Assembly: GCF_026210795.1 (NCBI RefSeq)
Contig: NC_089435.1
Coordinates: forward strand, 124,001 to 188,000
Reading direction: 5' to 3'
DNA length: 64,000 bases
Origin: Rhizophagus irregularis
Lineage: Eukaryota
Positions 5,529 through 60,416 of this stretch are shown one piece after another. A program made the position numbers and the translations under genes. Position 1 is the stretch's first letter; every line of letters starts with the position of its first letter. Below the pieces are notes generated by a model that was not told the origin of the DNA, ran no database searches, and was given only the letters and a program-made list of their open reading frames with translations.

Positions 5529-6305
5529 TTAAGCGGTATCAAGAAAAATTCGCGCGAACTTTTCTTGCCATTGTTCAAAGTATATCATTGTTTTTTTTAA
5601 AGCAATTGATTAAACAATGGCAAGAAAAGTTCGCTCGAACTTTTCTTGCCATTGTTCAAAGTAGCATTTTTTTTTTTAAAGCAATTGATTAAACAATGGC
5701 AAGAAAAATTCGCGCGAACTTTTCTTGCTATTGTTCGAAGCATACCATTGTTTTTTTTTAAAGCAATTGATTAAACAATGGCAAGAAAAATTCGCTCGAA
5801 CTTTTCTTGCTATTGTTCGAAGCATACCATTGTTTTTTTTTAAAGCAATCGATTAAACAATGACAAGAAAAATTCGCGCGAACTTTTCTTGCTATTGTTC
5901 AAAGTATATCATTGTTTTTTTAAAGCAATTGATTAAACAATGGCAAGAAAAATTCGCTCGAACTTTTCTTGCTATTGTTCAAAGCATACCATTGTTTTTT
6001 TTAAAGCAATTGATTAAACAATAGCAAGTAAAATTCGCGCGAACTTTTCTTGCTATTATTCGAAGTATATCATTGTTTATTTAAAGCAATCGATTAAACA
6101 ATGGCAAGAAAAATTCGCTCGAACTTTTCTTCTTGCTATTATTCAAAGTATACCATTGTTTTTTTTTAAAGCAATTGATTAAACAATGGCAAGAAAAATT
6201 CGCGCGAACTTTTCTTGGATTGTTCAAAGTATACCATTGTTTTTTTCAAAGCAATCGATTAAACAATGACAAGAAAAGTTCGCGAATTTTCTTGATACTG
6301 CTTAA
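5529..6305. repeat. Tandem array of ~81-bp units, each with a ~44-bp palindrome, bounded by terminal inverted repeats (MITE/foldback-like)
   Basis: About 9-10 units of AACAATGGCAAGAAAARTTCGCGCGAACTTTTCTTGCYATTGTT plus a constant linker. Ends are TTAAGCGGTATCAAGAAAA...TTTTCTTGATACTGCTTAA. A further partial end starts at ~6318. Confidence 0.85.
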
Positions 6306-22380: not shown

Positions 22381-23603
22381 CCCTATAAAAAGTATTATAC
22401 TTAAAATATACTTAAAATATATTATGAAATAGATTATAAGTATATTTTAAGTATATTACTAAAAATATATCTATAATATACTTAAATTTTAATTTAAATA
22501 TAATTTACAGAGGGCGATCAGAATTATCCGGCCACTTTTCAAGTTGAAATAATTTATATATATATAATATAGCAATAATAAAAATTTAAGTTAAACAAAT
22601 TCATTATGTCTTTGTTTACTAATTCAGATAAAATTTTAATAATAAATTCTATCTCCATTTGCAAAAATAACTCCCCAATTCACAGAGATATGCTATTGAT
22701 AGATTTTTTATAATATTCTGGAGTAATACCTTTCAATGCAACTTTAACATAGTACTTTTCAAGTGGTTTTATCAGAAAATTTAATAAGGTATGCAAGCAT
22801 AATGTTGAAAAAGTATTATGCCATTATATTACATATTAATTACAGGTATTATGCAAATGTAATACTATGTAAATTATAAATTTTTCAAGTTTGCGAAATT
22901 TGCGAATTTTAAAATTTAAAATTGTATGTTAAGGTTATTTTGAGATCTAGTGATTGAAATTTTGAAATTTTGGGTTCATCAGATTCGTCTCATTGAGAGA
23001 ATTTGAATGGTAATAATTTAATGTTTGTAGGATCGATATTCATCACATGATTACGCTCTAAAAGCATAAATGTCATCTACGATATTTTCTGATCCTGTGA
23101 TTGAAATTTTCCGATTTATAGCTCTTTTGATCCGTCTCATTGAGACGATTCGAATGGTGGTAAGCACAGGTCGATCAGATCGATATTGGCGAAATTATGA
23201 TGTTTTTAATATTTTTAAGTTTGTTTACACAAAATTGTAAAATTTATAAAATTCATACTATAGGGTGACTTCATACTTTCGAAAAATATGAAGCATTGGA
23301 ATTTGTTTATTGTGATTATAAATACAAAATTATATCTTATTTATATTACATTAACACATCATGATCAACAAAATTTTAGCAAAATAAACTGGCCGAATAA
23401 TTTTGATCGCCCTCTGTAAGTATATTTTAAGTATTTGGGCAAAAATTAAATATATTAGAAATATATTTTAAGATAATTTTAAATACATTTTAAGTATATT
23501 ATAAGTATTTCGCAATTTTTAAATTAACTATATTTTAAGTATATTTTAAATATATTTTAAAAAGTTTTTAATTATATTTTAAATATAAATACTTTTTATA
23601 GGA
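22381..23603. mobile_element. Non-autonomous CCCTA-ended (CACTA/CMC-like) element inserted in the hAT transposase
   Basis: Ends CCCTATAAAAAGTATT...AATACTTTTTATAGGA with 3-bp TSD TAT. Removing it restores the reading frame LTNDICKLE. Confidence 0.85.
22508..23416. mobile_element. Tc1/mariner-type MITE nested in the CCCTA element
   Basis: TIRs CAGAGGGCGATCARAATTATYCGGCCA flanked by TA on both sides. Confidence 0.9.
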
Positions 23604-25380
23604 TATTTGTAAATTAGAGTTTGCCCAATCAATATTAAAAAAATGTATGAAATTAGTTCATTTTTTTAAAGCATCTCATCGGGCAGGTGCAGAATTAACA
23701 GATGAAATAAAGGAAAATATAATTAAAGGTGGTAAATTAAAGGGGTATTGTCAAACGAGATGGATGACTGCATGTGATTGTGTATCTTCAGTTTTAAGAT
23801 GTGAAGAAGCTCTAAAAAATGTTGGTATTTATTGATTATTTTTAATTATTTATTTTTAATTAATTTTAATGAATTTATTTAATTTTAGATAGCAAATAAT
23901 AACCTGAATTACCTAAAGCAAAATATCAAAGAAATTATTACGAGGCATTTTTTTATGGATATTGAAGAATTACAATTAATTCTTAAGCCAATAAAAGAAG
24001 CCATCAAATATTTAGAAATGAAAAATGCAACGTTAGCAGATTGTTTCTTATAATTAATAAAATTGTTATATTCAATCAAAAGCTTATCAGAAACTCATAC
24101 TACTTTTTGACAACAATGCATTAAAGCATTTAATAAAAGGTGGATGCAGTTCAATTTTAGGTTATATATGTTAGCCTATTTACTTCATCCACTATACCGT
24201 GGTACGTATTTGATAAAATAAAATGATGATTTTTTACTTATTTAACAATTAATTAATTATTAATTAATTAAAATATCATAGGTAAAGGATTCTGAAATCA
24301 AGTATGCCGTAAAGTAGTTTATTGGGCAATTGAAAATATATAGATAAAAATGGGAGGTATAAAAAATTCCAGTTCCAAATTAATTGGGCAAATTGCTGCT
24401 TTTCGTGATAATCTTCCTCCTTATAATGATGAATTTGTTCCTAAATATTATACAGTTGAACATTAGTGGAGTTATGTAGAACAAGATGAAGGAGAAGAAA
24501 ATTTTATCCAACAACTTGCATTAAAAATATTTTCAATAACTCCACACAATGCAAGATGTGAGAGAATATTTTCTGTGATGGGTTGGTATATGAATAAAAG
24601 GAGAACTCGGTAAATATTTATTTTATTGTTGCTAGTTATTAATTTTTTTTTGAATTTTAAATTTTAAGTAATTCCTTTCAATTAGATTAAGTGTGAATCA
24701 TTTACAAAATCTTACGAAACTTCACACATATTATGTTTCAAATGCGAAAACTGAATTAAAGTATACGGCTAGAGATATGAATGTCAAAAATGATGAAGAG
24801 TTTATCAATTGGTAAGAAATGGTATATATCAAAATATTAATGATGAAATACGAGAGGAAGAATTAGATAATGAAGACGAAGATTATGGTGATACAGAAGA
24901 AGAACTTGTTAACATAGAAGAGTATGAAAAATTTGGGCATAAAAGTAACGATAGTGTTTTACAAAGTGAAAACTATTTTAATTTTGTATCAAAGGAGCTA
25001 GTGGAATTATTAAAACTTCAGGAGCCACGAGTAGTTATTAAACCCGTAAATGTTGATCATATTGTTGACCACGGTAATGAAAATTTCGATATAGAGAAAT
25101 TATTAGACCAACAATTTAGTGTCATATTCATTTGTTGTATATTTTGATTTGTTTTATTTCTTTCAAAATTTTGAATAAAAGCTTCTAACAATTTTGCGTT
25201 TTAACATAAAGAATTTCTTCTTAATTTATTTTAAAGACAATAATTTAATACATTATTTCATTTAATTTATTTTTAACAATTTTGTATATGTTTAACAGTT
25301 TTATTTAATGCTTAACGATATAGATTAATAATATTTAATGATCTAATTTAACAATCTACTTTAATAATGCTTAAGATTTT

Positions 25381-26858
25381 CAGAAACTGAAATCTACAAA
25401 AAATAAAAAGAAAGAAACGTACGTTTCTTCAAAGTAAATTTCAAAAAAATCTGCCCCCATACACGTACTTGTGTTCTAAGAAACTGAATCTACAAAAAAT
25501 AAGAAACGTTAGTACGTTTCTTCAAAGTAAATTTCAAAAGAACCCGCCCCTATACACGTTGAGATCCCCCAATTCCCTCTGTCATCAATTTACAGAGTTG
25601 CCACATCGAATGGGCATTCCCATGGTCGAACGAACGAATAATCGAACGAACGAACAATTAAACGAACAAGCAAATAATCAACGACATGATTAACAAACAA
25701 CATAATCAACAAACAACATTTAACAACAATGTACAACAACATTCTTGGTTCATAACATAAATAGCGTTAGTAATATAAAACGTCAAACGATATAAAATAA
25801 AATTTAACTTCTCTAAATTTTCCCCAAATTATATCCACTTTTACCTTTAATTTCAAACTTCGATAGCTCTCGCTACGAATTATTACTTTTCGTAAGCGTA
25901 TATTTAATTCATCTTAAATTTCCATTTTATTCAATTAAAATTAATTAAGCGAACATTAATTAAAGTTTAGGGCGAACCTATTACCTTTAATTAATATTAT
26001 ACTTCATTAACAAATAATTAAATTTAACTTATATTTTTATTGAGTTCTGTGGATGAGAACTATGGAATTACCTTGAATTCCGCTCTCTATTTATACAAAT
26101 TTTATGCTACTTTCTATTCTATCTATATACTATCTTTTATATTCTTTTTACATATTATCTTTGAATTATCTTTCTAATATGCTATCTATATTTTAAATAC
26201 GCTATCTTTTAATATGCTATCTTTTTATATATGTTCTTTTTAATATGTTACCTTTTATATTCCATCTTTATACTATCTTTTTATATTATCTTTTATATTA
26301 TTTTATGTTCTTTAATCTTTCTGACATTATTTTATATGTTCTTTTAATTCGCTTTATGTGTTTTGCTTATAATCTATCTTTTGTGGCTTATAATTATTCT
26401 TTCTAATTGTTCTTATTGCTAAAGATTGCTAAACCGCAATTGATCGACTCTAATTATTCTATTGGTTCTTTGTCAATCATTTGATAAATATTACATCATG
26501 TAGATCATTACTCTTCCTAAATGTTTATCCTTTTCGGCTAATTATTTATCCATCTACGCCAATTCATAATCAATTTGTTCGTTCTTAATATTTGGCAATT
26601 ACATTTGGTGGTTGAATTTTATCATCTTTTCGTGCTTGATATTCGGCCGTTTACAACGTACCCGCATTTCTTCAAAATAAATTTTAAAAGAACCCACCCC
26701 TATACACGTACCCGTGTTCTTAGAAACTGACATCTACAAAAAAAATAAAAAGAAAGAAACGTTAGATGTTTCTTCAAAGTAAATTTCGAAAGAACCTGCC
26801 CCTATATATGTACCTGTATTATAAGAAACCGAAATCTACAAAAATAAAAAAGAAAGAA
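25381..26858 (-). repeat. Tandem array of ~95-100-bp intron + micro-exon units (splice signals on the minus strand), split by a solo LTR
   Basis: The minus-strand unit reads GTACGT...TACTAAC/TCTAAC...pyrimidine tract...TAG followed by a 21-22-nt exon. Example introns: 25394-25468 and 26734-26813. Confidence 0.8.
25560..26655 (-). mobile_element. Solo LTR of Gypsy family A
   Basis: TG...CA ends, collinear with 3273-4343, 4-bp TSD ACGT. Removing it restores the array unit TATACACGTACCCG. Confidence 0.92.
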
Positions 26859-29035
26859 TTTTTCTTCTTTTAACATCTTCTCTAGTGAATCTATTAATTA
26901 ATTTGCTTTTTAAATTTCTATCATCATTATGGTCACACCAATTTACTAAATTAGCTGCTACTCTTTCTTTTTCTTCATTATACCATTGTAATGCGATTCC
27001 TAAATATGTTATTGCTACATTTGCTTTATTTTGTCTACATATACCTCCTCCAATATTTCCTTCTGTTCTTCCACTTACCATAAATGCTACTTCAAATTGT
27101 CTAATCCAATCGTTAACATCTTTATCTTCTTTTCCACTAAAAGTTGGCATACCTACTATTCCTCCCATTGCTGCAGTTTGAATTTTATCTGTTAGAGTTT
27201 GTCCTACTTCTAATGCATTATCTAATGCATTAGGTGCGAGTCCTATAGCATTTTCTACTATTCTTCTCATTTGTGCTTCTGTTGCCATGTTTAATAATAT
27301 ATTTTCTTGAAATAAATCTTGTAAATTATAATCAGATATTTTACTTTCGTTATATGAATCTTCAATATTCAATGAATTATTCGACTCTGAATTTTGACTT
27401 AAACCAAAACCTTCTGTATTTATAACATTTTCATTTTCGCTCTCAAATTCATTCTCATTAAAACTTTTAATATTTTCTTCTCAAATCTCATGTTCTTCTG
27501 GATCTAATATTTCTCCAATCTTTTCTGAATCATCTGTATCATCATTTTCTTTTTCAACTTCTTCTTCACTTTCTTCAATTTCAAATTTCTTTAAATATTC
27601 GTCTAATATTCTCCTTATTTCTTTTTCTGATTCATTTTTATATTCTTGAAATTTTCTTATAAAGTCTGCACTTAATATATCAACATCTCTATATCCCATA
27701 CTTATTAATCTTAATAATTCTCCATCAAAAACTTCAATTTCTAAAATTTTGATTAGATTTTTTAACTGTTCTAATCTTTTCTCTATTTCTGTTTCATCAT
27801 CTAATTCATTCTCATCTTTTACATTTTCTAATTCTTTTTCATAACAACTTTTACATATTCTTTCTATAAATTCTTTATTATATTCTACCGCTTTTATTGC
27901 TTCTTTCTTTAATATTATTTTGTTACACATTGGACATTCTATTGTATACATATAATGCCATATTCTTAACTCTTCTTCTATTTCTTTGTCATCTAATTCT
28001 TCAATAGTTTTGTAAAATTTCATAAATTCTTTAGTTTTTATTATTTCATATTCTACTTTAAAATTTATTATTTGTCTTATTTCTTCAATATCAATTTTAC
28101 AACCATTTTTTAACCAATAATTTCTGTATATTCTTTCTATATGTTCGTCTCCTTCATTTGAATTTGATTCTTCCACATTATCTGAACTTTCTAGTTCTCC
28201 TATGTCACTTTGTTCTTCAACAAAACCTTTTGTTTCTACAATTTTCTCTATTATCTTATCTGTTAAATCATCGTTCATCCATGGTTTTGAATATTTATTT
28301 CTATCCCACCATTGATATGTTATACTTTTCTGAAACTTCTTGATTTTCTCTCTATTTTCTTCTTTTGCAATATTTTCTTCTAAATGTAATATTTCTTTAA
28401 AATTTCTCATAGTACCATATCCTTTATTCTTAATAGTTACTGATTCTATTTCTTCTAACCATTCTTCAAATTTTGCAAATCTTATATCTAATTCATTATC
28501 TTCTATGATATATCTATATGTTAACAATTCTTTATTCCCTAATAAGTTCTCCTCTGTTTAATCATCTAATATGAACTCATCATCTTCACTAAGTATATAA
28601 TGTTCACTTATCACTTTTACTACCGATATAATTCCTATTTTTCTATAATCTGATTTATTTCTATACCTAATTGACCTTACAACTATATCACTACTATATC
28701 TAACAGTTTTTCTCCTTCTTTTCTCATTTTCTCAAATTCTTTATTTCTTTTCTTTTTACTAGATGGATAACTTTCTTCTCCATCCTTTCTTGTCAATATT
28801 ATATATTCCATTAATTTTGTATATGTGTTTCTATTATAACTCATTCCTTCTAATATTACCTTTTGAAAAATTTTCCAAAATCTTTTAAACTAATCTCCTA
28901 TTTCTATTTCATCAGTACTATAACATTTTAGACATGAAGGGTCCACTTGATATTCTTTTCTTAATTCATTATGTTTCTCTATTTCATGTCTATTCTTAAT
29001 CTCTTCTAATTTATCATATATATCAGATATTTTTA

Positions 29036-29398
29036 CACAGGTCGAAATTAGTTAAATAGGGTATCAATAGGTTATCAATAGGTTATCAATCGGCTATCAA
29101 TAGGCTACCCTATTGGTAGCCTATTGAACTTGCGCCATAATCCGTCACCAATCGGGCAGGCTGATTGATAACCTATTGATAACCTATTAATACCTTATTG
29201 ATAACCAATTTGATAAAAATACCAATAGGATACTAATAGGTTATCAATAAGTTATTAATTGGCTAACAATCAGCCTGCCCGATTGGTGACGAATTATGGC
29301 GCAAGTTCAATAGGCTACCAATAGGGTAGCCTATTGATAGCCGATTGATAACCTATTGATAACCTATTGATACCCTATTTAACTAATTTCGACTTGTG
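29036..29398. mobile_element. 363-bp palindromic CACA-ended (CACTA/CMC-type) MITE
   Basis: Ends CACAGGTCGAAATTAG...CTAATTTCGACTTGTG with 3-bp TSD TTA. Nearly the whole element is self-complementary, with TCAATAGG repeats. Confidence 0.9.
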
Positions 29399-29466
29399 TT
29401 ATTTATTTAAACATTTCATAATTTCACTTTTATTTATATTTTATAAAATTTTATCATTAACTTAAC

Positions 29467-30786
29467 AGGACCCTGGAAAATACTTATATAGGTAAGGTCC
29501 CAAAAATATTTTTTATTAGTAGCTCTAAGCATAGGTTTTTACTATGATCGCTAAGCATTGTTGATATCTAACCTTAAAAATTATATAAAAATAAGCAAAT
29601 CAATCTTCTAACCTAATTAAATTTTTATTATAACACATATAATTTATAAAATATATTTATTAATTAATATATTTTATTAAATCCAATTTTAAATATGTTG
29701 TGAAGCTAAACTAAACATAATATACAAGTAGATTAACAATATTCAATTAATAAAGTTAATAAACAGTAAAAGAAAAATTCGAAATTAATACTATTACAAA
29801 AAATGTAAATTTCTCCATAAGTATTATACTTACACCCATAAAAATTAATATGTAGGTAGTTTCAACCTTGCTGAACAATTTTTAATTAATTTAGAAAGTC
29901 GATTTCATTTGACCAAAGAGGTGTAATTACGCTCTGAAGTTGTAAACGGAGAAATGAAAAATTCGGAAGTTAGTACCGTTATGAAAAATGCACTTTTCTC
30001 CATAAGTATTATACCCACACTCATGAAAATTAATATATAAGTAGTTTCGACCTTGCTGAACAACTTTCAATTAATTTAGAAAGTCGATTTCATTTGACTG
30101 AAGTAATGTAATTACGCTCTGAAGTTGTAAACGAAAAAGTGAAAAATTTAAAAGTTATTACTGTTAAAAAAATATGCTTTTCTATATAAATATCATACTT
30201 AGCCTTATGAAAATTAAAATACAAGTAGATTTAACTTGCTGAACAAACTTACTTAAGCATAAAAGATAATTTGATATAACCAAAGTGGTAAGTATTGAAA
30301 TTATATTTAAAGTAAAACATATTTATAGTAATTTTACTATTTAACAAAATAAACATGTATAATATAGTAATTTTATATTAAAAATAATACACTGGGTTTA
30401 ATAAAAATTAAAAAGATACTATTAACAGATAATTAATAAAACATTGAAAAAAAAAATGAAATTTCATCAAAAAAAAATTTTTGTTTATGTATTTATATAA
30501 AATTGTGAAATGTAGTACAAAATTAACACTCACCGTTAGTGAAAATAAAATAAAAATTAATTATAAATTCAATATATAATATTTTAAAAAGTTATATAAA
30601 TATGAAAAATAAGCAACTAAAAACTCTTAGTATTTTAAAATAATACCAAAAATATGCAATTTAATTATCTTACATAGTATAAAATTTTCTTAAAATTAAG
30701 CATTATAAAATTCTTACATCATAAAACTTTACTATGTTGGCTAAGCACCTTGGTACCTTACATATATAAGCATTTTCCGGGGTCCT
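29467..30786. mobile_element. 1.32-kb non-autonomous TIR element (AGGACCC ends), copy 1
   Basis: TIR AGGACCCYGGAAAATRCTTATAT with perfect 8-bp TSD AACTTAAC and ~185-bp internal tandem repeats. An inverted second copy lies at 42069-43539. Confidence 0.9.
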
Positions 30787-32955
30787 AACTTAACATCATT
30801 TAAATTACTATTTTATCTTTTACTTCTTTAAAATACAATTTAAATTCTAATATTTTCAAAGTTCCAGCTTTGATTTTATAATTTCTCTATACATTCTATA
30901 ATATAATCTATAATCGCGATTTTATTTATAAACTTTCTATATCTTGCGCAAATAAACTGTGATCAAGGCTAGGGATTATTTATAACTGGGGCCGCCCAGT
31001 GTCAGACTAATATGATCACCAACAAAGGCTTATTTATACTGGGTCCTCCCAGTGTGCTCTTATTTATACTGTGTAATAACCGAAAATATGATAATATAGA
31101 ATAAGGATAAATAATTAGCCAATGGGTAAATAATTAGCCAATAAAATTATATTTATAGTTTAGTGTAATGAGATAGACACATGATAATAGATCTTCAAAT
31201 TTTATTAGAAATATTAGAAATATTAGAAATATTTTTCTTAAAAATGTATAAATACAAGTGGATTTCGATAGGAAATTCAGCAGTTCAATTTTTGGAAAAA
31301 TAAAATTTTTAGTTCACCCTTAATAAAAACTAACACATTCTTTTTGCCTTTTTCTTATGAGTAAAAAGTGCCACATTAATTATATTTTTAATTAATGGTT
31401 TATTAATGTTTTGTAACTAATTTTTATTTTAAACCAAGCATAAATACTATACGAACTCAACACGTCGGTGGCAACATACGATATTTTATTTAATATCCTA
31501 TGGGCGGCATGTCACATTTTTGGTGCATGCTCGCAAGAAAGTAAAAGATTGTTGTCTTCATACAAGATCTAAATGAGAAATAAAAGAAAAGTATATAAGA
31601 AAATGAAAGAAAATTTGTGAAATATAAGAAAGGAAGGATGATATGAGAAATCATCAAAGAAGTAATAGATAAGGAAGACTTATCTGAAATATGAGAAAAG
31701 TGTTACTATATATGAAAAAGGATATAGTAAAAAAAAATATATAAGAAAATTAAAATATTATTGAATGATATATGAGAAATAAGAAAAAGTAATATTATGA
31801 AAAAGGAATATTACGGAATATATGAGAAATGAAAATATACGATATATTGAAAAAGTATATATCGAAAAGATGAATGAAATATTCAAGATAATAATAAAAA
31901 GATTTAAAAATTAAACGAAAATAAAAATTTATAATGAGAATGAATTTTGTGAATAATAAGAAGTTAATAAATGATTGAAAAATTTGAAAAGTATTATAAG
32001 AAAAGAAAAGTTATTAGTGACAAACCCGTAAATTACTATACTTCTATGAAGAAGGTAAAGGCAAGCCCGGTATAGGTTACTAAATGAAAGAGAAAATTAA
32101 ATGATATTATAAATATAAGAAATATCAAAATGTTGTTATTTGATATATGAAAAATAAAAGAATAATATGAAAGATTGTAAAAGATAATAATGAATTATAT
32201 GAAATAAAATGATGTAGTAAAAGAAATTGCGTAAACATGTTGCGTAAAATAAATAAAATGTTGTACAAATCACGTGAGTAATGTAAATCACGTGATGAAG
32301 TGCAGTAAATAAAAGAAATAAGAGAAAGTATAAGTCACGTGATAAGGCGTAGTAAAAGAAATATATAGCTGCCCCTTGGGCAGGGGCGACTGATTAATAA
32401 AAATATAAATGAATAAGAAAATAATAGAAGAAATAGTTGTGTCACCAGGGGCGTTTGTCAACAGAAATTTTAGTACGTTGATCGCTTAAAAATCCGTGGC
32501 TATCCAATTATAATAAGAAAATATTAATGAATTATAAAATGAAATACGAAAAATAAAAATAATATAAAATAGATCTGAAATAAATATTTTGGAAGTTAAT
32601 ATAAGAAAAAGATTAAAAGTTATTAAAAAGTTTAATTTTGTGTATAGAACTGGGAGGACCCAGTATAAATAAGCCTTTGTTGGTGATCATATTAGTCTGA
32701 CACTGGGTGGCCCAGTTATAAATAATCCCTAGCCTTGATCACAGTTTATTTGCGCAAGATATAGAAAGTTTATAAATAAAATCGCGATTATAAATTATAT
32801 TATAGAACGTATAGAGAAATTATAAAATCAAAGCTGGAACTTTGAAAATATTAGAATTTAAATTGTATTATAAAGAAGTAAAAGATAAAATAGTAATGAT
32901 AAATTTTATAAAATATAAATAAAAGTGAAATTATGAAATGTTTAAATAAATAAAA

Positions 32956-35900
32956 ATGTCTGATATATATGATGAATTAGAAGAGATTAAAAGAAGACAT
33001 GAAATAGAGAAACATAATGAATTAAAAGAAGAATATCAAGTAGACCCTTCATGTTTAAAATGTTATAGTACTGATGAAATAGAAATAGGAGATTGGTTTA
33101 AAAGATTTTGGAAAATTTTTCAAAAAGTAATACTAGAAGCAATGAGTTATAATAGAAACACATATACAAAATTAATGGAATATATAATATCGACAAGAAA
33201 GGATGGAGAAGAAAGTTATCCATTTAGTAAGAAGAAAAGAAATAAAGAATTTGAGAAAATAAGAAAAGAAGGAGAAAAACTGTTAGATATAGTCGTAAGG
33301 TCAATTAGGTATAGAAATAAATCAGACTATAGAAAAATAGGAATTATATCGGTAATAAAAGTGATATGTGAACATTATATACTTAGTGAAGATAATGAGT
33401 TCATATTAGATGATCAAACAGAAGAGAATTTGTTAGGGAATAAAGAATTGTTGACGTATAGATATATTATAGAAGATGATGAATTAAATATAAGATTTGC
33501 AAAATTTGAAGAATGGTTAGAAGAAATAGAATCAGTAACTATTAAGAATAAAGGATATGGTACTATGAGAAATTTTAAAGAAATATTACATTTAGAAGAA
33601 AATATTGCAGAAGAAGAAAATAGAGAGAAAATCAAGAAGTTTCAGAAAAGTATAACATATCAATGGTGGGATGGAAATAAATATCCAAAACCATGGATGA
33701 ACGATGATTTAACAGATAAGATAATAGAGAAAATTGTAGAAACAAAAGGTTTTGTTGAAGAACAGAGTGACGTAGGAGAACTAGAAAGTTCAGATGATTT
33801 AGGAGAATCAAGTTCAAATGAAGGAGATGAACATATAGAAAGAATATACAGAAATTATTGGTTAGAAAACGGTTATGAAATTGATGTTAAAGAAATAAGA
33901 CGAATAATAAATTTCGGAGTGGAACATGAAATAATGAAAACTAAGGATTTTATAGAGAGCTATATGAAAATTAAGGAATTAGATGATGAAGAAATAATTG
34001 GAGAACTTAGAAGATGGTATACTATGAATGCCACAGAATGTCCGTTGTGTAACAAAATGATACTGAAGAAAGAAGCAGTAAAATATAATAAAGAATTTAC
34101 AGGAGAAATATGTAAAAGTTGTTCTGAGAGAGAAGAGAATGATGTTAGTGAAACAGAATTAAGAGTAAAAAGAATACAGAAAATATGTGAAGGAGCAGAA
34201 GTTGAAGTAACGGAAGGAGAAATATTACGAATGATAAATATGAGTTATACAGATGGAGAAATCTTAAATTGGAAGTTTATAAAGTTATTCCAAGAAAATA
34301 AGAATGAATTGGAAGGAGTCATAAAAGAAATATTAGATAAATATTTAGAAGAACAAATAGAGACAGAGGGAAACAATGAAAAAGAAGAGGATACAAATGA
34401 TTCAGAAAAGATTGGAGAAATATTAGATCCAGAAGAATGTGAGATTTGGGAAGGAAATTCTGAAGACTTTAATGAAAATGAAGTCAAAAATAATAATGAA
34501 AATATTATAAATACAGGAGGTTTTGGTTTAAGTCAAAATTCAGATTCGAATAATTCATTGAATATTAAGGATTCTGATATTGAAGGTTCTGATAGTGAAA
34601 GTGAAGTATCTGATTATAATTTACAAGATTTATTTCAAGAGAATATATTGTTAGATATGGCAAATCAAGATCAAATAAAGAGAATAGTGGAAAATGCTAT
34701 AGGACTCGCACCTAATACATTAGATAATGCATTAGGAGCAGGACAAACTTTAATAGATAGAATTCAAACTGCAGGAATAGGAGGAATAGTAGGTATGCCA
34801 ACTTTTAGTGGAAAAGAAGATGAAGATGTTAACGATTGGATTAGACAATTTGAAGTAGCGTTTACAGTAAGTGGAAGAACGGAAAGAAATATTGGAGGAG
34901 GTATATGTAGTCAAAATAAAGCAAATGTAGCAATAACATGTTTAAGAGGAATTGCATTACAATGGTATAATGAAGAAAAAAAAAGAGTAGCAGCTAATTT
35001 AGTAAACTGGTGTGATCATAACGATGATAGAAATTTGAAAAATAAATTAATTGATAGATTCACTAGGGAAGATGTCAAAAGAAGAAAAATGATAGAATTG
35101 ACAAGGATTAAACAAGAAAAAAATGAAAGTGTTGAAGAATATAATAGAAGATTTAAGTCAATAGTAAGAATTGCAACTAGAGGTATGACACGTATCAAGT
35201 AAATTATTATATCCAAGGATTAGAACCTACATTGGGGTACCAAGTTAGAAGAAGTAGTCCAACGAATTTAAATGACGCAATTAATATAGCAAGAAGAGAA
35301 GAAAAAGCTAAAAATGAATTGATAATGAAAACAACGGGTGTAAATATAGAACAAATAAGACAAGAAAAGAATATAGAAGAAATTTTAAAAGAAGAAATGA
35401 ATAAAAAAGAAGAAAATGAAATATATAAAAAAATGCAAAAGCCAGTTAATGAAAAAGATATTGATGAATTAAGTAAAGCGTTAGAACAATTTAGAGCAGA
35501 AAAAATAGCTATGGAAGAAACGTTAAATGAAATAAAAAATCAACAAAGAAGAAATATAAATAGAAATACAAATACAAGAAATGCAAGAAAATAAGATGTT
35601 ATGAATGCAATGAAGTAGGTCATATAAAACCAGAATGTCCACAATTAAGACAAAGAAATAATTATAGAACGCAAAATAATTTTTATAGGAATAATAATGA
35701 AAGAAGAAATAATAATGGTAATAGAAATATAAATTTAATGGATCACGAAAGATATTATGATAATGGTAATTATTATAATAATTACGAAATATATAATTAT
35801 GAAAAAGAAATATTTCCAACTTTAAGAAGTGGTAGAAAATATGGAAGAGATTTAGATAATGACTATAATGAAATGGAAATTGAAGATGTTCCAATACCAC

Positions 35901-40239: not shown

Positions 40240-41499
40240 GCGGAATATTTGTGGAATTGCTGAATAGTTGCGAATTTGTGGAATATCTGCAAAAAAAACT
40301 AATTTTTTTTTTAATGAAATATAATTTTTTAATTTAACTACTAAAAAATATATTTCCTTTTATTATTAAAAATTGAAACGCCAGAACCAATAGTTCTGGC
40401 ATTTTTAATAAAAAAAGTCAAAAAAAATGCCAGAACCTATAGTTCCAGTAAAAACGTCAAGACTTATAGTTCTGGCATTTTTATATAAAAAAATTTAAAA
40501 AAAATGCTGAAACCTATTGTCCTGGTGTTTTTATATAAAAAATAATTTAAAAAATGCTAGAACTCATAGTTCCAGTGTTTTTACATGAAAAAAATTAAAA
40601 AAAAATCAAAAGAAAATACCAGAACTATAGTTTTGGCGTTTTTATGTAAAAAAAATCAAAAGAAAATGCTGGAACTATAGTTCCGGCGTTTTTATGTAAA
40701 AAAAATCAAAAGAAAACGCTAGAACTATAGTTCTGGCATTTTTATGTAAAAAAAAATTAAAGAAAATGCCGGAAATGGTTCTGGCATTTTTATATAAAAA
40801 AATCAAAAGAAAATACCAGAACCATAGTACCGACATTTTTATGTGAAAAAAATTAAAAGAAAACACCAGAACTATAGCTAGTTCCAACATTTTTATGTGA
40901 AAAAAATCAAAAGAAAATGCCGGAACTATAATTCCAGCATTTTTATGTAAAAAAATCAAAAGAAAATGCCAGAACCATAGTTCTGGCATTTTTATGTAAA
41001 AAAATCAAAAGAAAACGTTAAAACCATAGGGGCCTCCAGCGTTTTTACGTAAAATCTTAAAAGAAAACGCCGGAACCATAGTACCGGCATTTTTATGTGA
41101 AAAAAATCAAAAGAAAATGCTGGAATCATAGTACCGGCATTTTTATGTAAAAAATCAAAAGAAAACATCAGAACCATAATTCCAGCGTTTTTATGTAAAA
41201 AAAATTAAAAGAAAATGCCAGAACCATAGTACTGGTGTTTTTATGTAGCTGGAATTCATAGTTCTGGCATTTTTATGTAAAAAAAAATCAAAAGAAAATG
41301 CCAGAACCTATAGTTCCGGCATTTTTATGTAAAAAAAAATTAAAAGAAAACGCCAGAACCCATAGTTCTGGCATTTTTATAAATGTACGAAACTGACAGT
41401 TATAGGCAGCAATTAGAATTGCAGAATTGTGAGCTACTAACCACAATTCAACTCCAAATTCTGCAATATTGCAGAATTTAAAAATTATTTGCGGACCTA
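40240..41499. mobile_element. hAT-like non-autonomous element with ~49-bp palindromic tandem array; left end removed at the Gypsy 3' LTR
   Basis: About 20 units of AAAAGAAAATGCCAGAACCATAGTTCTGGCATTTTTATGTAAAAAAATC (40370-41380). The right end ...TTTGCGGACCTA (YAG-type) has GCAGAATT/GCGGAAT subterminal motifs. Confidence 0.7.
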
Positions 41500-42068: not shown

Positions 42069-43539
42069 AGGACCCCGGAAAATGCTTATATATGTAAGGT
42101 ACCAAGGTGCTTAGCCAACATAGAAAAATTTTATGATGTAAGAATTTTATAATGCTTAATTTTAAGAAAATTTTATACTATGTAAGATAATTAAATTGCA
42201 TATTTTTGGTATTATTTTAAAGAGTAAATTTATTCATCGCACGTGCGATGCATCGCCACTTTCCTTTTTTGTAAATTATTTATGTTGATCAACCTGCTTA
42301 TACATCGCCACCCCCCTTAAAATGGCAATGATAAACATAAAAATTTGCATCGCACGTGCGATAAATAAATTATTTCTATTTTAAAATACTAAGAGTTTCT
42401 AGTTGCTTATTTTTCATATTTATAGAACTTTTTAAATTATTATATATTGAATTTATAATTAATTTTTATTTATTTTCACTAACGGTAAGTGTTAATTTTG
42501 TACTATATTTCACGATTTTATATAAATATATAAACAAAAATTTTTTTTGATGGAATTTCAGTTTTTTTTTTTAATTATCTTTCAATAGTATCTTTTTAAT
42601 TTTTATTAAACTCAGTGTATTATTTTTAATATAAAATTACTATATTATACATGTTTATTTTGTTAAATAAAATTACTGTAAATATGTTTTACTTTAAAAT
42701 ATAATTTCACTACTTACCACTTTGGTTATATCAAATTATCTTTTATGCTTAAGTAAGGTTATTCAGCAAGTTAAATCTACTTGTATTTTAATTTTCATAA
42801 GGCTAAGTATGATATTTATATAGAAAAGCATATTTTTTTTAATGGTAATAACTTTTAAATTTTTCACTTTTTTGTTTATAACTTCAGAGCGTAATTACAC
42901 CACTTCAGTCAAATGAAATCGACTTTCTAAATTAATTGAAAGTTGTTCAACAAGGTCGAAACTACTTATATATTAATTTTTATGAGTGTGGGTATAATAC
43001 TTATGTAGAAAAGTGCATTTTTCATAACGGTACTAACTTCTGAATTTTTCATTTATCCGTTTACAACTTCAGAGCGTAATTACACCCCTTTGGTCAAATG
43101 AAATCGACTTTCTAAATTAATTGAAAATTGTTCAGTAAGGTCGAAACTACCTACATATTAATTTTTATGGGTGTAAGTATAATACTTATGGAGAAATTTA
43201 CATTTTTTGTAATAGTATTAATTTCGAATTTTTCTCTTACTATTTATTAACTTTATTAATTGAATATTATTAATCTACTTGTATATTATGTTTAGTTTAG
43301 CTTCACAACATATTTAAAATTGGATTTAATAAAATATATTAATTAATAAATATATTTTATAAATTATATGTGTTATAATAAAAATTTAATTAGGTTAGAA
43401 GATTGATTTGCTTATTTTTATATAATTTTTAAGGTTAGATATCAACAATGCTTAGCGATCATAGTAAAAACCTGTGCTTAGAGCTACTAATAAAAAATAT
43501 TTTTGGGACCTTACCTATATAAGTATTTTCTGGGGTCCT
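42069..43539. mobile_element. AGGACCC-ended TIR element, copy 2 (inverted relative to 29467-30786)
   Basis: Same TIR, TSD AACCAGAC / AATCAGAC (one mismatch), collinear in reverse with copy 1. Confidence 0.9.
42222..42376. mobile_element. 155-bp MULE-type MITE nested in copy 2
   Basis: TIRs contain ATCGCACGTGCGAT and there is a 9-bp TSD TATTTTAAA. Copy 1 has the empty site near 30635. Confidence 0.88.
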
Positions 43540-44431
43540 AATCAGACCCTCCTTTCATAAATTAGACAATTTTATCTCCAATTTTCACTGCTGTCATCAT
43601 TAAATGACCATCTATATCATTTTTTAAAAGAAGTATATGTATAATTAGTAAGCTTATCGATCCATGAAATAAATGATAGATCAATTTCTACCGATACTTC
43701 TTGATAAATTATTACAATATCGGACTATTATTATACAAATATCAATAAACTATTAGTTTATTAGTTTACTGATAATTGTATTAAATTTTAATGATATATT
43801 TTAAGAAATTGTATTATAACCATTAAAACATGTGTATAATTTTTAAAATGGTCAATCAGTGCCATATTGGGATCCTGATATTCACCTGATTGCTTATATG
43901 GGTTTTTTGCTAGGAAAATGACCTTCTGAGACTAGATTTTAGATTTTAAGTAAATGGTAATTGAAAATTCTATCAAAAATTAAGACCAATAAAATTTGTT
44001 TCTAAATTTATCTACATCACGTGATAATGATCGGCTATGTAGATCATTTCCATTTTTGGCGATACCCGTTCCACAAAAAATGATTTTCCTGAAAATAAAA
44101 TTAACCTTTTTTGGAAATTTGTGTAACATTTTCTACATAAAAGGAAATGATCTGCAAAAAATTTTGGCCGGAGTTATAAATTTGGCCCGAATTATAATAT
44201 CCACTAGTGTAGGCCAAAACGGAATTGTTATTATCAAATCACATGACACTATTTTTTACCTGATACGAGTTTTGCTAGGAAAATGACCTTCTGAGATATT
44301 GTTACACAAGTTACACAAAATTTGTATATTTAATTTATTAACCAATCAGAAAATGCAATATCACATCATTGTACAAAAAATTCTTGGCAAAATAAATTTA
44401 GCGTTAAAAAATTTTTAAAAAATAAATAAAT

Positions 44432-46738
44432 ATGCAGAATGATGTTTTATAACTAAAATAGTATTCTTTTTGCACCTCATATTTATAAGCATAATTTGCC
44501 CCCTTTTTTTTTAATAATTTTTTTTTTAAAAAAAACAATAATGACGTTAAGACCATTTTATAATTTAGTTCAGTTAGGTTTAGATGAATATGAAGATAAT
44601 GAACTAGTATTAAATATTGTACATGACTTAACCCAATTTTTTGAACAAAAATTGCACATGTCGTCATTCTAAAAAGCAAAAGGATTTGCGAACTTGTTAT
44701 GAAAAAGTTGGGTTTAAACATTTTTTTGAACGATATATTGAATTAAAAAGTTTAGATAAAAAAGAATTAGAGTTAGTTATCAAAGCTCAACTTATGGTAT
44801 TTGAAATAACTAATGAAAAATCAGATAATACTAATTCAAATACACAAAGATATAGATATTGTTATAATGCTTCTTTGCCTTTACGTAAACCAGCATTTTT
44901 AAAATTATGTGGAATTAATGATTATTTACTTGGTACTTTACAAAATCATTTACATACAGAAGGATTAAGTGAGCGATATTCATGGAAATATAGGACGTAT
45001 ACCTAGACTGACAATAGAGTCTTCCTTAATTCTGAGATTACATTTCCATTAAAACAATTTTTAGTTCAATATAGCTGTATTCATGGTTTACCCTCTCCAT
45101 TACGACATAGAAATGATTCCAATACATTTATTTATCTTCCTACCTGATAGAACATATACTTCTGTTTATAAAGAATACAAAGATTATTATTATACTGAAC
45201 ATGATGAATCAAACCAAATAATTTCTTATTATACTTTTCGGAGACTTTGGATTGAAATGATGCCATATCTTAAGTTTCAAGCACCAGCAAGTGATCTTTG
45301 TGAAATTTGTGAGGGATTTAAGGCTAAAATAAAAGTAGCAAAATCTGATGCGGATGAACGCATGAAAAGTTGAAATTCAATATGAGAATCATCAAAAATT
45401 AGCAAAACTTCGAACGTCAGCATTATAATGATAATATTGAGAAAAGTAAGAATGATTTAACTATTGCACATGTATGCTATGACTGGGCGCAAAATGTTTT
45501 TATACCATATTCGCACAACAAGTTAGTTCCATTTACTTTAAATCAGCTTTTTCTGTGCATCTTTTTGGAGTTCCAGAAACTGAATAAGGCAAAATCATCA
45601 ATTGAATTTTGTAATTGGAGGAGGGATCGGAAAAGATTCGATTAAAATCGAAACTATCGAAAATCAATAAGAATTGATTTTAAATCGAATCTCGAATAAA
45701 AATCGAATCTACTTATTGTGGCGCAGTTTCGTTAATTTGACCGTAAATTATTATTTGTTCATAATAGTTAATTTTGGCCAAATTCGATAATTCCGCCCGC
45801 GAATCACGTGACGGAACACAAACTTCCTAAAAAGGAAATTTTATCTCCCAATAAAATTCAAGTTGCCATCGCACAAGGTTGTATAAATTTCCAAAAACGG
45901 AAATTTGTTTGTCGATCACTGTAATTTTTTGTAATCACGTGATATGTGTTTAAACACACCTATTATAAATAGTATAAAAAAAAATCGGTATTTGCGAAAC
46001 GATTAATCGCGATTAATCGATTTTAGAATCGATTCTAGTAATGGGAATCGATTCCAATCCCTAAATTGGAGAGAATGAACTTCCAAAGGTACTTCTAAAG
46101 GTGCTAATACAACGATAAATATGGTATACAATTCACTTCAAAAATTTGCTCAGAATGGAAAAAAACATTTACAAATTACTTGTGATAACTGCACTGGGCA
46201 GAATAAAAACAATTTATCGCTTTGGTTTTGGTCCTGGTTGGTTATGCTTAATTGGTATGAAGATATTACGGTTAATTTTATGATTAGTCATACAAAATTC
46301 ATATATGACTCATTTTTTGGTCGTATTAAAAAAGTATATTGGAAGCATAAAGTTAATACTATTAATGATGTTAAAAACATTATAAATAATTCATCAAACG
46401 GTAATGAAGCAATTTTATATGATAACGGAATAAATTGGAATTGGTACGATTTTAGTGCATTTTTTAAGAATCATTTTGTACCTCTCCCTAATATAACACA
46501 ATTCCATCATTTTCGTTTTAGCTCTGAAGATATTGGTAAAGTATATGCATCAAAAGAATCCGGTGGTGTAGAATCATGTTATAAATTATTAAAAAGTGAT
46601 AATTTTAATAAAAATAGTAAACCTGATTTAATTACTACTGTATCTTTAACAGAAGAATGACAAAATTACTTATATTCAAAAATTTGACAATACGTTGATG
46701 AACCTTACAAAGATGAGTATTGTGCAAAACCAAAATAA
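44432..46738 (+). pseudogene. Sola-like DDD transposase, multiply frameshifted and interrupted by a MITE
   Basis: Motifs SDLCEIC, CYDWAQN, TCDNCTGQNKNN and NFMISHTKFIYDSFFGRIKK. The start position is approximate. Confidence 0.75.
45621..46063. mobile_element. 443-bp hAT-type MITE inside the Sola transposase
   Basis: Ends GAGGGATCGGAA / TTCCAATCCCTA, 8-bp TSD AATTGGAG, AATCGA subterminal motifs. Confidence 0.85.
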
Positions 46739-46825
46739 TTATAATTTAAAAATAAAAAAATAAAAATTTAATTTATTAAACTTTAAAATGATTATAAATA
46801 ATTTAAGTATGAAATAAAATTATTG

Positions 46826-47587
46826 CTGTAGTATAAAAGAAACGTCAATAACGTTTCTTAAAGTTAATTTTGAATAAACACCCCTATTACAATTTACTCA
46901 AGATCTTCAAGACTATTTAAAAAGAAAGAAGAAAAAAAATATTAATATCATTCCTAGAGAAAAAAACAAAAAAAAGAATTTACTCACCATTTCAAAGTCA
47001 AAGGCTAAAATCCAGTCCAAGAAGGTCGTCCCTAAAGAGGAAGAAGAAAAAGAACGTTAATATCGTTCCTGAAGTAAAAAAAAAATAAAAAAATAATTTG
47101 CTTACCATTTCAAAGTTCAAGGCCAACATCCATTCCAAGAAGGTCGTCCCTAAAGAGTAAGAAGAAAAAAAGCGTTAATATTATCGTTCCTGTGAGTAAA
47201 AAACAAAAAAAAATAATTTACTCACCATTTCGTGCAAGGCTAAAATCCATTCCAAGAAGGTCGTCTCTAAAGAGGAAGAAGAAAAAGAACGTTAATATCA
47301 TTCCTGAAGTAAAAAAAAAACAAAACAAAAATAATTCGTTTACCATTTCAAAGTTCAAGGCCAAAATCCAGTCCAAGAAGGTCGCCCCTAAAGAGAAAGA
47401 AGAAAAGAAACGTTAATATTATCTTTCCCGGAGTAAAAAAAAACAAAAAAAAAATAATTCACTTACTATTTTAAAGTTCAAGGCCGAAATTCAGTCTAAA
47501 AAGACCGAAAATATAAAAAAAAGTTTCAGAATATTAAAAAAAAAATAGATGATCAATCCAAACAAATCTATAAAATAAGCTGCATAC
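46826..47587 (-). repeat. Tandem ~119-bp intron + mini-exon array inside the 3' part of the Sola element, antisense to the transposase
   Basis: Minus-strand introns 47388-47466 (GTAAGT), 47267-47343 (GTAAAC), 47150-47225 (GTGAGT), 47032-47105 (GTAAGC), 46913-46987 (GTGAGT) and 46826-46897 (GTAAAT). Each has a TTAAC/TTAAT/TTGAC branch motif, a pyrimidine tract and YAG. Exons are 44, 41, 44, 44 and 15 nt. Confidence 0.8.
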
Positions 47588-49063
47588 TTGTGTTAAAATA
47601 ACGATTTAAATTTTTTTAAAATCGTTTAACGTAAATTTTATTAGTATGCTGATCATTTCTGAATCTATTTTTAGATTTTGGTACTAATCGTTACACAAAA
47701 ATTGAAAATCAAATTGCTCGTTCCGGTAATAAGATAATATGTTACAAAAATTTAATTACATAAAGTTTATGTATTATATATTCATATAAAACAAAAATCT
47801 CAATTTTTATAAAAAAATTTCAGAACCTCATTTTCCTAGCAAAGAACCCATATCCTGATACCTCATCATTCGACTGGTGATTCGCACTTTTAATCAGCGT
47901 TATTTTATTATGATATTTTAATATTTTCTTAACTTTTTACCATTCAGAGGTCAGATTGAGACAAATTTACCACCATTGGATTCCTCTTAATTATGTGGTT
48001 TGAATGGTGGTCTCAAAATTACTGTGTAGCATCTGTGTAATATGGTAGTTCAAGTATAATAGTAAGTATTATAAATTTTGTATAAAGATAATCATTTCTA
48101 AAAGTAATATAAAATCTCAATAATATAATAAAAAGACTATTATTTAAATCTCGTAATTGCAAGAAATCTAATAGTTGTAATTTTGTTTCAATACAAGCTT
48201 TGGTTAATGAGAAAATGAAGTTTAAACTTTTTATTTCAAATTTTCATACCAAATTCAACTTTAATGTAAAAATTATTAGTAGTATTTCTCTGTGATAATG
48301 TGGTATAACAAAATGCAATTATAATATTTAGCAGTTAAAAGTAAGTGGTTTTTTTTTTAAAAAAAATTGGAATTTATTATTATGTAGGATTTTGAGCATT
48401 TTAAAAAATCCATAGCAAATTATAATGCTTTAATTTCTATTAAATTTATAACTTTTTGGTTTTTTAGAAGGTAAAATAGGCGTAAAAACAATAATAAATT
48501 TTCATTTTTTTTATTGCTTTTTAAAATAGTATTCTAAAAATCCATTGGGCATTACAAGTTTTAATTTAAATAAGAAAATTCTGATCTCATATCCAAAATA
48601 ACAAATGATATTTGCACCACCATTCTTTTTGCTGGGAATTGTATATAATAAAAGATCAAAAAAATTATATATATTTTTAATTACATAGCATTATTTTTAC
48701 AAAATAATATAAATTTCAAAAAAGAAAGGTATTACTTAAAAGAGCACATGTTTATGAACAATTCACATAAAAGTTATTGTAGTTGTGCTTTTACTATAAA
48801 GTTGAATTCAATCATAATATGCTATTTTATTACTAATTAATCTATAGGTTGATGATCATTAACATTACAGAGTGAAAAATCTGCACTAATTAAATTTATA
48901 TATAACATCATATATAATCGATCTACATAATGATTTGAAACACCCCAACGAACCATCCTAACTCATCTCCATTAATTGTGTATTTTTATGCTTCTCCATA
49001 AAATTAAACTCTCATTATCCACTAATAAACCCAGCCATAACAATCTAAAAATATCATACTATA

Positions 49064-56759: not shown

Positions 56760-59700
56760 TTATAATTCTTGATTTTTATAAGATATATTTACAGTATCAT
56801 TAAATCCTATTCCTTTTACTCGTTTCTTTCTATTCCATGCACCATCACCATACATCCCATCCCATTTTCTTAGTTCTATTAAACTTGACATATCTTCTGA
56901 ACACGAAGGTGTTACTTGTTTAAGCGCCACTTGAAAATGATGTTCTTTTAGAACTCTAACATGTAATGATTGTTCTGTATTATTTTTTTTCAAATCATCA
57001 TTATTTTTGTCTATTTTATTAACATTATTAATAACTCTAGCCTTTTCACTCTCAGCATCTTCACGAACTGCAGCCAGAGCAGCGCTTATACATAAATTTT
57101 TCAAATCTGATCCGGAATAAAATTTGGTGGACCTAGCAAGATGGTTCAATGATATTAACGAATCAAGCTTTTCATCGCGAAGGTGCAAATTAAGTATCTG
57201 CTCACGATCTTTTTCATTTGGCAAATCAACTATAACCAATTTTATAATTATTATGTTAATAAGTAAGTCTCGAAATATTCATCTGATAGGAAAATTTTGT
57301 GATATACCTAATATTCTCCTTGGCATTCTTCTTAAAATGGCATCATCTAAATCAAATGGTCTATTTGTTGCACCCATAATCAATACCCCATCATTACGTG
57401 ATGTTAAACCATCCCACTCGGTCATAAATTGATTTATTATTTCCCGATGTGCACCATTATGAATGTCTGAGTGTCTAGAGCCAAAAATAGCATCCAATTC
57501 ATCCAAAAAAATAACACATGGAGATAATTTACGAGCAAGGGAGAAAATTGCCTGTCAAATAAAATATCAGCAAACAAGTATATATAAATAGATTTTATAT
57601 TAAGGGTAAATATATTGAATACGAATTCATACCCGGACATTCTTTTCACCTTCACCAACATACATGTCGTATACATCACTAGATTTAATATCTATTACTG
57701 TGCTACCACTTTCTTTAGCGACAGCTTTTGCAAGCATGGTCTTTCCTGTGCCTGGTGGACCAAATAATAATACACCAGAAATAAAATGTTTACTCAAGAC
57801 ACCATAGGAAAATGATTGCGGTCGCATTAAGGGCAGAGTAATCAATGTTTGAAGAGTTTGAACAATTGATTGAGCCACATGAATATCCGAGAATCCAACT
57901 AATATATTTTCTACAATAAGATTTGACAAATTAACATTTTAATTATTCACTCCTTATAAGTTTTCTTCAATAATTTACCTGGATCTACAACACAAGTCAG
58001 AAGTTTTTTTTCATATTTATCCAAGTCTTCTTTCCTTAGATTTTTTCGGTTCATTAAATTAATCTTACCATCACCAATTCCTTCGATGCTAACCAATTTT
58101 TCAGGACACTTACTCATGGAATTATTATTAGTCGTAGCAGACTCAACAAAATCTTTACGTAACTTCTGGTTAGTTTTTAAAATATTTGAAGCTTGAATAA
58201 AATGTTCAACGTCCAAATAAATTGAATCGTTTGATGGCGAAATGTTTTGATTAGAAAGGGCAATACCGATAGAATTTATTACCAAATGATGAACGCGTTC
58301 AAATCCCCAAACATCATTATCTATGCCTTCTAAAGGCGTAAATAGGTTTGCTAATTCCTTAATGTTATCAGTTTTAAAATACGCCCCTTTACTGGCACAA
58401 ATAGCTTTTAATGTGCGTACATTAATATGTCTTATTGCGATATTCTTGTCATGTGCTATCATTTTTTGTAAATTTTGAGCCTGTTCACTTGAAAATGGTG
58501 GTAGAATAGTTATATGTGTGAATGCTGCTAACATTGCTGGATTAGGAAATGTTTCAATGCTAACCCATTGGATTTCGTGAGAAGGTACATTGGAATTTAT
58601 CATAGACTTTTTATCCATAGCTAATAACGATGGAGAATAACCTGCAATAATCATGATTTGTTTTCCTAAATGTCTTTGATTCTGTACAGCCTCGACCAAG
58701 CCATTAATTAACGCGGTACAAAAAGTAGTTGGAACTAAATCTCCAACATCCCGAAAATATATTATTTTGGGGGATGACGATGAGTTGGATGATGATGGAG
58801 GTGATGCCGAAACTAAAGTTTCAAAAAATTGATCAATTTTGTCTAGGATTTCTTTCATTTCTGCTCGTAGAGACCCATTAGCTTGAGATGAATTATATTG
58901 AAAATTGTCAACCAAAGTTTTATTTTCATAAGCAGAATTACGGGATATTGAAGGTGACAATTCAAAACCTTCTTCTTCCTCCATAAATACATCATCCTCC
59001 AGTTCATTATCGGAAGAAAATGAAGAGGCTGTTGAATAGGGTGATGCTGCAATGTATGGATTAAAGCCTTTTAACTCAGAAAATAATGGCCATGGTGTTA
59101 CTAAAAAAATTATTTTAAAACATTATACTGTGAGTGCTTTGATCTTAACATATACATTTGATCAGCCGAAATCATCTCACCATTACCCTTCCGTGAAAAC
59201 ATATTGGCTGTCAATTCCATTAAATCTTGGCGATCAAATATTAATAAATCAGCACGTAAAGATGCTGCGATACTTTTGACAATCGAATCTAAATAAAATG
59301 ATGCTCCTTCCATAGGGCAATTTAATAGTAAATGGCCTCTTCTAGTAGGTACAGTATTACTCTTTGGAATTGGTAGCAGATTTGCACGTGCACTGAACAA
59401 AATTTCATCACGTATCCCATTATCCAAAGGATAAGGTAATGATTCAAAAGAATTGTTGTTATCTTTAAATGATAAATAGTTTTCTTTTAAGAACAATGGA
59501 GGTATTACTGGTTTATATGGACTTATAGTTTTTCGTAAACGTGAACGTAATTTTGGAAATGCTGTACGTAGTTTTCTTGGAGATCTGAGTAAATATTCTC
59601 CAACATTTTCTGCTCCTGTTTCAGAAAGTTGTGTTATACTTTCCTCTACTTGTTGTCTATTTTCAGCTTCATCGTGATTGGACGCTGAAACGGGTATTTC

Positions 59701-59919
59701 TTTTGCATTCGAAGAAGAAAAGCTACTTATATTATTGTCCTTGACAGGTTTCAACGGTGAACTACTATTATTCGGCAAATCATTGGGTGAGGTTGAAAAA
59801 GTCCTTGGAATAGTAGTTATACGAGTTATACGTTTAAAAAACTTTATTGAGCAAGCTGTTTTTTGTCTATTTACTATAAGTGCACATTGAAAGGTTCTAC
59901 CAGTTAAACTTCCAAGCAT
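56760..59919 (-). CDS. MSP1/ATAD1-like AAA+ ATPase with long N-terminal region, 5 exons, probably mitochondrial
   Basis: Walker A GPPGTGKT, pore loop MYVGEGEK, Walker B IFLDE, SRH ATNRPFDLDDAILRR and YSGSDLKNLC. Canonical introns near 59101-59186, 57913-57978, 57553-57632 and 57230-57307. The N-terminus is R/S/T-rich and acid-poor. Confidence 0.9.
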
Positions 59920-60416
59920 TCTTGATTGTTGCTAGAAACTTTCAAAAAAAAATATAGACAATCTTTAGGCATTACGTAAATATATAAAATTACGTTACAC
60001 TAATAACACTATGCAAACCCGTTTTAAAAAATTTTTTTTTTAATATATAAAATTCCCGGTACAAGTATACTGTATACCACAGATATCGTATGACTGCATG
60101 AGTTGATATTTAATAATGCATCGCGTAACTTTTGCTGTTTGCATCACCTTTTGTAAAATAATATACTAATCTACGAGCCACTTTTCGATTGACACTTAGA
60201 CAAAAGTTATATCGTACTTAGATCCGATTTCTACCGAAAGAGAGCATAGGTAAAAATGGTCGGCAATTTCACCTGACTTGCTAGATCTTCCTCATCTTCC
60301 TCAGTAATATTATTCATCACCGGCATCACTCCCCACCGCGCACAACCATGTCACCGGTCACGTGGGGTGAAATTTTGTATTTATTTCATGGGGAGTTGGA
60401 AATAAATGGGTAATCC

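Follow-up and report, generated by a model that had tools for sequence, protein, structure and literature searches.

Intron-like arrays and neighboring elements

The window, by which we mean the whole 64-kb stretch of Rhizophagus irregularis DNA that was analyzed, is AT-rich, transposon-dense eukaryotic DNA, and the coordinates of its relevant features are collected in Table 1. The unit under study (unit A) was present on the minus strand where an earlier note on this DNA had placed an intron-like string, and it reads GTAAAT..TATTGAC..TACAG over 72 nt. It is the final unit of a minus-strand chain with the five units of a 118-bp array, and both are convergent with a broken DUF7869 transposase, presumably of the Sola type, an assignment that goes back to a motif and an earlier label. 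Along part of the transposase fragment, identity to R. irregularis proteins reaches 96 to 97%, in a set of 31 matches. At the putative ends of the element, a partial inverted motif was seen whose left end could lie at either of two places, and the MITE inside the transposase (at about 45620-46085) has an 8-bp flanking repeat, as read by eye; DNA contigs with the empty site exist. The junction between unit A and the 118-bp array is real, because one DNA contig spans 46805-47045. At 46917, the window lacks two letters that are present in most RNA reads of two runs and in a DNA contig, and with these letters the first 118-bp unit ends in TAG.

A second chain, made of 75- to 80-nt units and 21- to 22-nt exons, is convergent with a broken hAT transposase. 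The earlier note had cited one of its units, h2, as an intron homologous to unit A. The homology was borne out, but h2 falls short of a complete intron: its 5' splice site is interrupted by a TG..CA element of 1.1 kb. We take this element to be LTR-like; a second copy lies at 3273-4343, and DNA contig depth for the element was very high. The exons of both the 118-bp array and the hAT-side array contain stops or shift the frame, and no lasting reading frame runs through them. A 45-nt in-frame repeat exon was ruled out, since the exons measured 44, 41, 44, and 44 nt and two of the three frames had stops. Protein searches with the translated arrays gave no relatives (best atlas score, 0.78).

Table 1. 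Positions of the array units, exon-like spacers, and transposon parts in the 64-kb window
Feature	Position	Strand	Basis
Broken hAT-type transposase (DUF659), upstream of the hAT-side array, convergent	21480-25147	plus	Protein/domain search
Exon-like spacer e0, following h1	25370-25393	minus	Sequence
h1, 75-nt unit, donor GTACGT, loopless stem, TAG end	25394-25468	minus	Sequence, pair count
Exon-like spacer e1, 21 nt	25469-25489	minus	Sequence
h2, TACTAAC in 9-bp stem, donor interrupted by insertion	25490-25559	minus	Sequence, reads
TG..CA LTR-like insertion inside the h2 donor, ACGT at both sides	25560-26655		Sequence, empty-site contigs
Remaining hAT-side array: truncated h3, stub ended by gag-like fragment	26666-26858	minus	Sequence
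22-nt exons of the hAT-side array	26712-26733, 26814-26835	minus	Sequence
h4, intact 80-nt unit, stem with 8/9 pairs	26734-26813	minus	Sequence, splice scan
Broken DNA transposase, Pfam DUF7869, interrupted by MITE	44580-46740	plus	Domain and protein search
Unit A, U2-type intron-like: donor GTAAAT, branch motif TATTGAC, short pyrimidine tract, CAG	46826-46897	minus	Sequence, splice-signal scan
Hairpin of unit A: perfect 9-bp stem, 5-nt loop, branch A (46845) as first base of the 3' arm	46837-46859	minus	Folding, arm-anchored pair count
Short exon-like spacer upstream of unit A, 19 nt in the window	46898-46916	minus	Sequence, reads, DNA contig
Sister 118-bp array with five intron-like units (71-79 nt), branch motif TATTAAY, exons of 41-44 nt	46917-47503	minus	Sequence, splice scan
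Units of the 118-bp array	46917-46987, 47032-47105, 47150-47225, 47267-47343, 47388-47466	minus	Sequence

Unit A carries a donor, a branch motif, a pyrimidine tract, and a YAG end, the signals of a U2-type intron, spaced as in host introns, with its branch A 52 nt from the 5' end and 19 nt from the 3' end. The host control was an intact-looking AAA-ATPase gene (DUF7608; 56760-59931, minus strand), whose four introns measured 68 to 81 nt when read by eye. A splice-signal scan, with rules written after the array units had been inspected, matched unit A, as it did 3 of 2000 local shuffles. Over both strands of the 64 kb, it returned nine textbook-intron matches, six of them in the two arrays and two in a third array with 185-bp units, compared with 1.1 on average and a maximum of 4 in 100 block-shuffled windows. 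The interval 46800-47520 held five matches on the minus strand and none on the plus strand (0 of 2000 shuffles), and four of the five units of the 118-bp array passed the scan. The scan missed each of the seven host and hAT introns, real or likely; thus, the array units are nearer to the consensus than the host's own introns. The third array, also exon-intron-like, occupies 42777-43239 on the plus strand and 29768-30246 on the minus strand, inside long inverted arms and pointing outward; its signals are GTGGGT or GTAAGT, TACTAAC, a pyrimidine tract, and CAG, with an 85-nt unit at 42988-43072. Palindromic tandem arrays with no scan match were observed at 5540-6294 (82 bp) and 40376-41400 (50 bp), and a gag-like region is present as a large inverted duplication (26858-29035 and 32951-35090) around a 365-bp palindrome (29035-29399) with 11-bp repeats.

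Homology of the units and the predicted hairpin at the branch point

The alignment of unit A with 25501-25553 that had been claimed earlier was reproduced, and unit A aligns more broadly with the 93- to 102-bp array beside the hAT transposase (25382-25559 and 26667-26858). Against the remainder of the window, its best local alignment scored 44, a value reached by 1 of 300 dinucleotide shuffles. In global alignments of unit A to h1, h2, and h4, none of 2000 shuffles scored as high in any of the three cases, with z values of 4.9 to 6.2, while the same test gave z values of -0.4 to 1.9 for four host and three hAT introns, real or likely, and of 1.0 to 3.5 for the five units of the neighboring 118-bp array. 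The alignment is thus significant against shuffled controls, and sequence comparison confirms that unit A and the hAT-side units are homologous and that the real host introns are unrelated to them. The segment 5' of the stem, taken alone, was matched by 0 to 1 of 2000 shuffles under global scoring; under stricter local scoring, 51 of 300 shuffles scored as high and the likeness was not upheld. Within the window, a non-stem pattern matched only the four family copies from which it had been constructed, a count that 0 of 100 shuffles reached. Elsewhere, this pattern occurred at 2 viral and 10 metagenome loci, none with the stem upstream, which we judged to be chance, and the stem pattern occurred at no viral locus and at 2 bacterial loci, both isolated hairpins that match by construction. 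The spacer before unit A showed a borderline likeness to the hAT-side exon e0 (105 of 2000 shuffles) and was unlike the other three hAT-side exons.

The earlier note had also described a hairpin enclosing the branch motif. The stem is present in the sequence, but it includes the branch A, and the loop holds no more than the beginning of the motif. With pairs counted by anchoring on the stem arms, the hairpin of h2 (25501-25522) has 9 of 9 pairs, a 4-nt loop, and its branch A at 25509, whereas h1 keeps 9 of 9 pairs but has lost the loop and with it the branch motif, and one pair of the stem is broken in h4. The branch A was predicted to be paired in unit A (P, 0.98) and in h2 (P, 0.90) and to be free in h4 and in four of the five 118-bp units, of which three enclose the motif in a weaker stem. 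Of three host introns with a motif match, two likewise had this base predicted as paired, so that its pairing alone is not special, and the folding energy of the whole intron was ordinary (z, -1.3 and -1.6).

The stem is better conserved among the copies than its flanks, with identities of 18/18, 18/18, and 17/18 against a background of about 60%. It was kept at 18 of 18 positions, compared with 31 of 52 in the flanks (Fisher P = 5e-4), and its 5' arm alone, which is not a splice signal, at 9 of 9 (P = 0.01), in a test that is post hoc because the stem led to the discovery. The covariation that might have been expected of the stem was not seen, as the four copies compared contain no compensatory change. 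Among the 40 variants listed, of 90 in the reads, two fall on the 18 stem positions (25507 C>T and 25516 G>A); these form one base pair and are unphased. Window-wide, 31 perfect hairpins of at least 9 bp were counted, compared with 3 to 9 in five shuffles, so that stems in repeats are common here. Palindromes in repeats may keep themselves perfect by template switching.

Copy number and RNA of the arrays

Reads on 44200-48000 came from three polyA runs, which represent two samples and were sampled to about one-quarter and gave 234, 249, and 198 reads, and from one DNA contig set; on 25160-25600 there were 281, 265, and 7 RNA reads and 160 DNA contigs. Mapping required a match to an intron-containing reference, so that fully spliced chains of 22- to 44-nt exons may escape notice; a joint needed three reads, and reads from paralogues may be included. 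Summed DNA contig depth, a rough measure that gives no copy number, was about 18,600 on the core at 25505-25534, compared with 38 to 46 where contigs were single; the hAT flank had about 200 to 700 and exon e1 had 88. On a rough reading of this depth, the hairpin/branch core is present in tens to hundreds of copies. The DNA depth over unit A was like that of the rest of its element, and thus the unit A variant is low-copy (at 85% likeness in the DNA contigs). When the letters between tandem joints and at loose ends were read by eye, they spelled sister arrays in which the donor is GTAAGT and the exons are different ones; these sister exons start alike.

PolyA RNA was present at the 118-bp locus, which has no coding frame, at a depth of about 5 to 21 on the array and near 0 over most of the transposase; a paralogue origin of this RNA is possible. 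In run X21, the boundary at 46917 was read through unspliced by 19 of 19 reads, with the two extra letters, and bin arithmetic suggests that these reads run on into unit A. The earlier note had proposed to look for intron retention; polyA reads hold the unit unspliced, and the three polyA runs contained no splice joint, at three reads per joint, in the 118-bp array or unit A on 44200-48000. On 25160-25600, the RNA joints among the 15 joints listed, of 21, were all tandem go-backs, except for one read that matched a DNA deletion. RNA depth was about 200 on the core, none of the seven reads of run X24 on this region fell on the module, and polyA reads were about equal in both mate directions at both loci. 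The ratio of RNA to DNA depth, a rough figure, was 0.011 for the core and 0.007 for the MITE, so that most copies of the core may be near silent.

Interpretation of the arrays

We lean towards the reading that unit A is a diverged copy of a high-copy, Rhizophagus-type repeat family in which spacers and 70- to 80-nt intron-like units stand head to tail, that tandem duplication and carriage by DNA transposons likely spread the family, and that its likely products are non-coding antisense RNAs, the splicing of which would be slowed by the hairpin predicted at the branch point. The homology, the ordered signals at host-like spacing, the tandem layout, the antisense place behind two transposases, the high-copy core, and the polyA reads that hold the unit unspliced were all directly established. 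The family is larger than the hAT/Sola pair first described, and its apparent link with transposons is drawn from two loci. Its units would expand by slippage or unequal exchange, and arrays would recombine at the common core to give mosaics; unit A itself may be such a mosaic, its 5' half and its stem being those of the hAT-side family and its loop resembling the one in the 118-bp family. DNA transposons would carry the arrays, and non-coding transcription would be antisense to them. Because the stem would hold the branch A and the first pyrimidines, U2 and U2AF would have to open it, splicing would be slow, and intron-retaining RNA would accumulate. Slowed U2 pairing, as proposed earlier, fits the predicted fold and the unspliced reads.

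An unlikely alternative is that the arrays are once-spliced pieces that have become plain DNA tandem repeats, in which the palindrome aids slippage and repairs itself and splicing and RNA structure are irrelevant. It agrees with the finding of unspliced reads only, at a MITE-like RNA level per copy, with the deleted loop of h1 and the broken pair of h4, with the two listed stem variants both being CpG transitions, and with the other palindromic arrays in the window that have no splice look. However, the donors of the different subfamilies (GTACGT, GTAAGT, GTAAAT, and GTGAGT) stay within the splice consensus, in three distinct arrays of the window the donor, branch, pyrimidine tract, and AG still follow one another in order, and the RNA per DNA depth of the 118-bp array was about 10 times that of the MITE. 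We consider it quite improbable that the palindrome, with its two ACGT cores, is a DNA-level signal, either a protein-binding subterminal transposon repeat or a Helitron-type terminator, and that the splice look is incidental. The arrays do lie close to DNA-transposon ends, and the loopless h1 is a perfect DNA palindrome, but loop length ranges from 0 to 5 nt and the splice scan is far above chance. Helitrons have a hairpin about 11 nt before a 3'-terminal CTRR that is followed by T, and their 5' end is TC. The stems of unit A and h2 end 11 nt before the terminal AG, which resembles this spacing; however, the tail is 18 to 20 nt in h1 and h4, and a Helitron 3' end was rejected, as the units end in TACAG or TGTAG followed by C or A, with no CTRR-T and no 5' TC.

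Of the interpretation in the earlier note, a shared intron-like module that expands in tandem was supported, and it occurs with differing short exons, but the array units are not supported as introners, and it is very improbable that the intron alone is mobile and enters unrelated sites, for example by reverse splicing. Like introners and fungal introner-like elements, as described in passages of PMC9860276 and PMC12130899, the family provides many similar intron-like sequences in one genome, at least for the core as judged from summed contig depth, and this high-copy core has varied flanks. Additionally, the significant likeness begins and stops roughly at the intron ends, with weak likeness of the exons, and, in passages of PMC9860276, a TSD and/or TIR is given for 59% of introner families and some families have neither. 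In contrast to introners, however, the units have no TSD or TIR (direct repeats across the ends of 0 to 2 nt; end matches of 4 to 7 of 12), and they multiply head to tail together with exons, outside host coding genes. Within the window, the copies, like the RNA joints listed, are all tandem, with exon-like spacers, rather than single insertions. The sister exons that start alike and the low copy number of the unit A variant also argue against introners, as does supplement file 7 of a 2025 survey (PMC12130899), which records no introner family in 20 Rhizophagus rows, 17 of them R. irregularis, from a pipeline that starts from annotated introns.

As a diverged repeat family with predicted antisense RNAs, the arrays would work most like the transposon-antisense spliced lncRNAs of the obligate biotroph Blumeria hordei, which are described in passages of PMC10648671 as non-coding, with splice sites opposite transposon genes, and are proposed there as RNAi precursors; in our case, the antisense strand and the splicing are predicted from the DNA. 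According to a passage in PMC6643885, transposon introns that splice poorly may trigger RNAi in Cryptococcus neoformans, through siRNA from stalled spliceosomes. In contrast, the array signals are near consensus, so that any block would be structural, and a similar siRNA route for these arrays would be speculation. In yeast, pairing near splice signals can lower splicing and canonical sites tend to be depleted of structure, according to passages of PMC10726166 and bioRxiv 10.1101/2022.07.22.501175, where single host introns or reporter libraries were studied and not a repeat family. We regard as rather unlikely the broader proposal that mycorrhizal fungal genomes hold intron satellites, that is, interchangeable tandem exon-intron arrays with one branch-point hairpin module, antisense in unrelated DNA transposons, whose hairpin would stall splicing so that the RNA feeds a small-RNA pathway or ties up branch-point factors and thereby tunes transposon silencing.

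Uncharacterized repeats make up 24% of the R. irregularis genome, as stated in PMC8647823, the main text of which has no mention of introns, splicing, or antisense, and the array family likely belongs to this share; searches of the open-licence literature gave no account of arrays of this kind in these fungi. If the arrays are spliced non-coding units, part of this uncharacterized quarter gets a name, and introns would multiply by tandem growth and transposon carriage, not as introners; if they are unspliced, they are a satellite resembling introns. The arrays may also account for false gene models. The natural copies with intact, broken, and loopless stems offer a direct test of whether a hairpin at the branch A slows splicing, and they could also be used to test slow splicing as a small-RNA trigger outside Cryptococcus.
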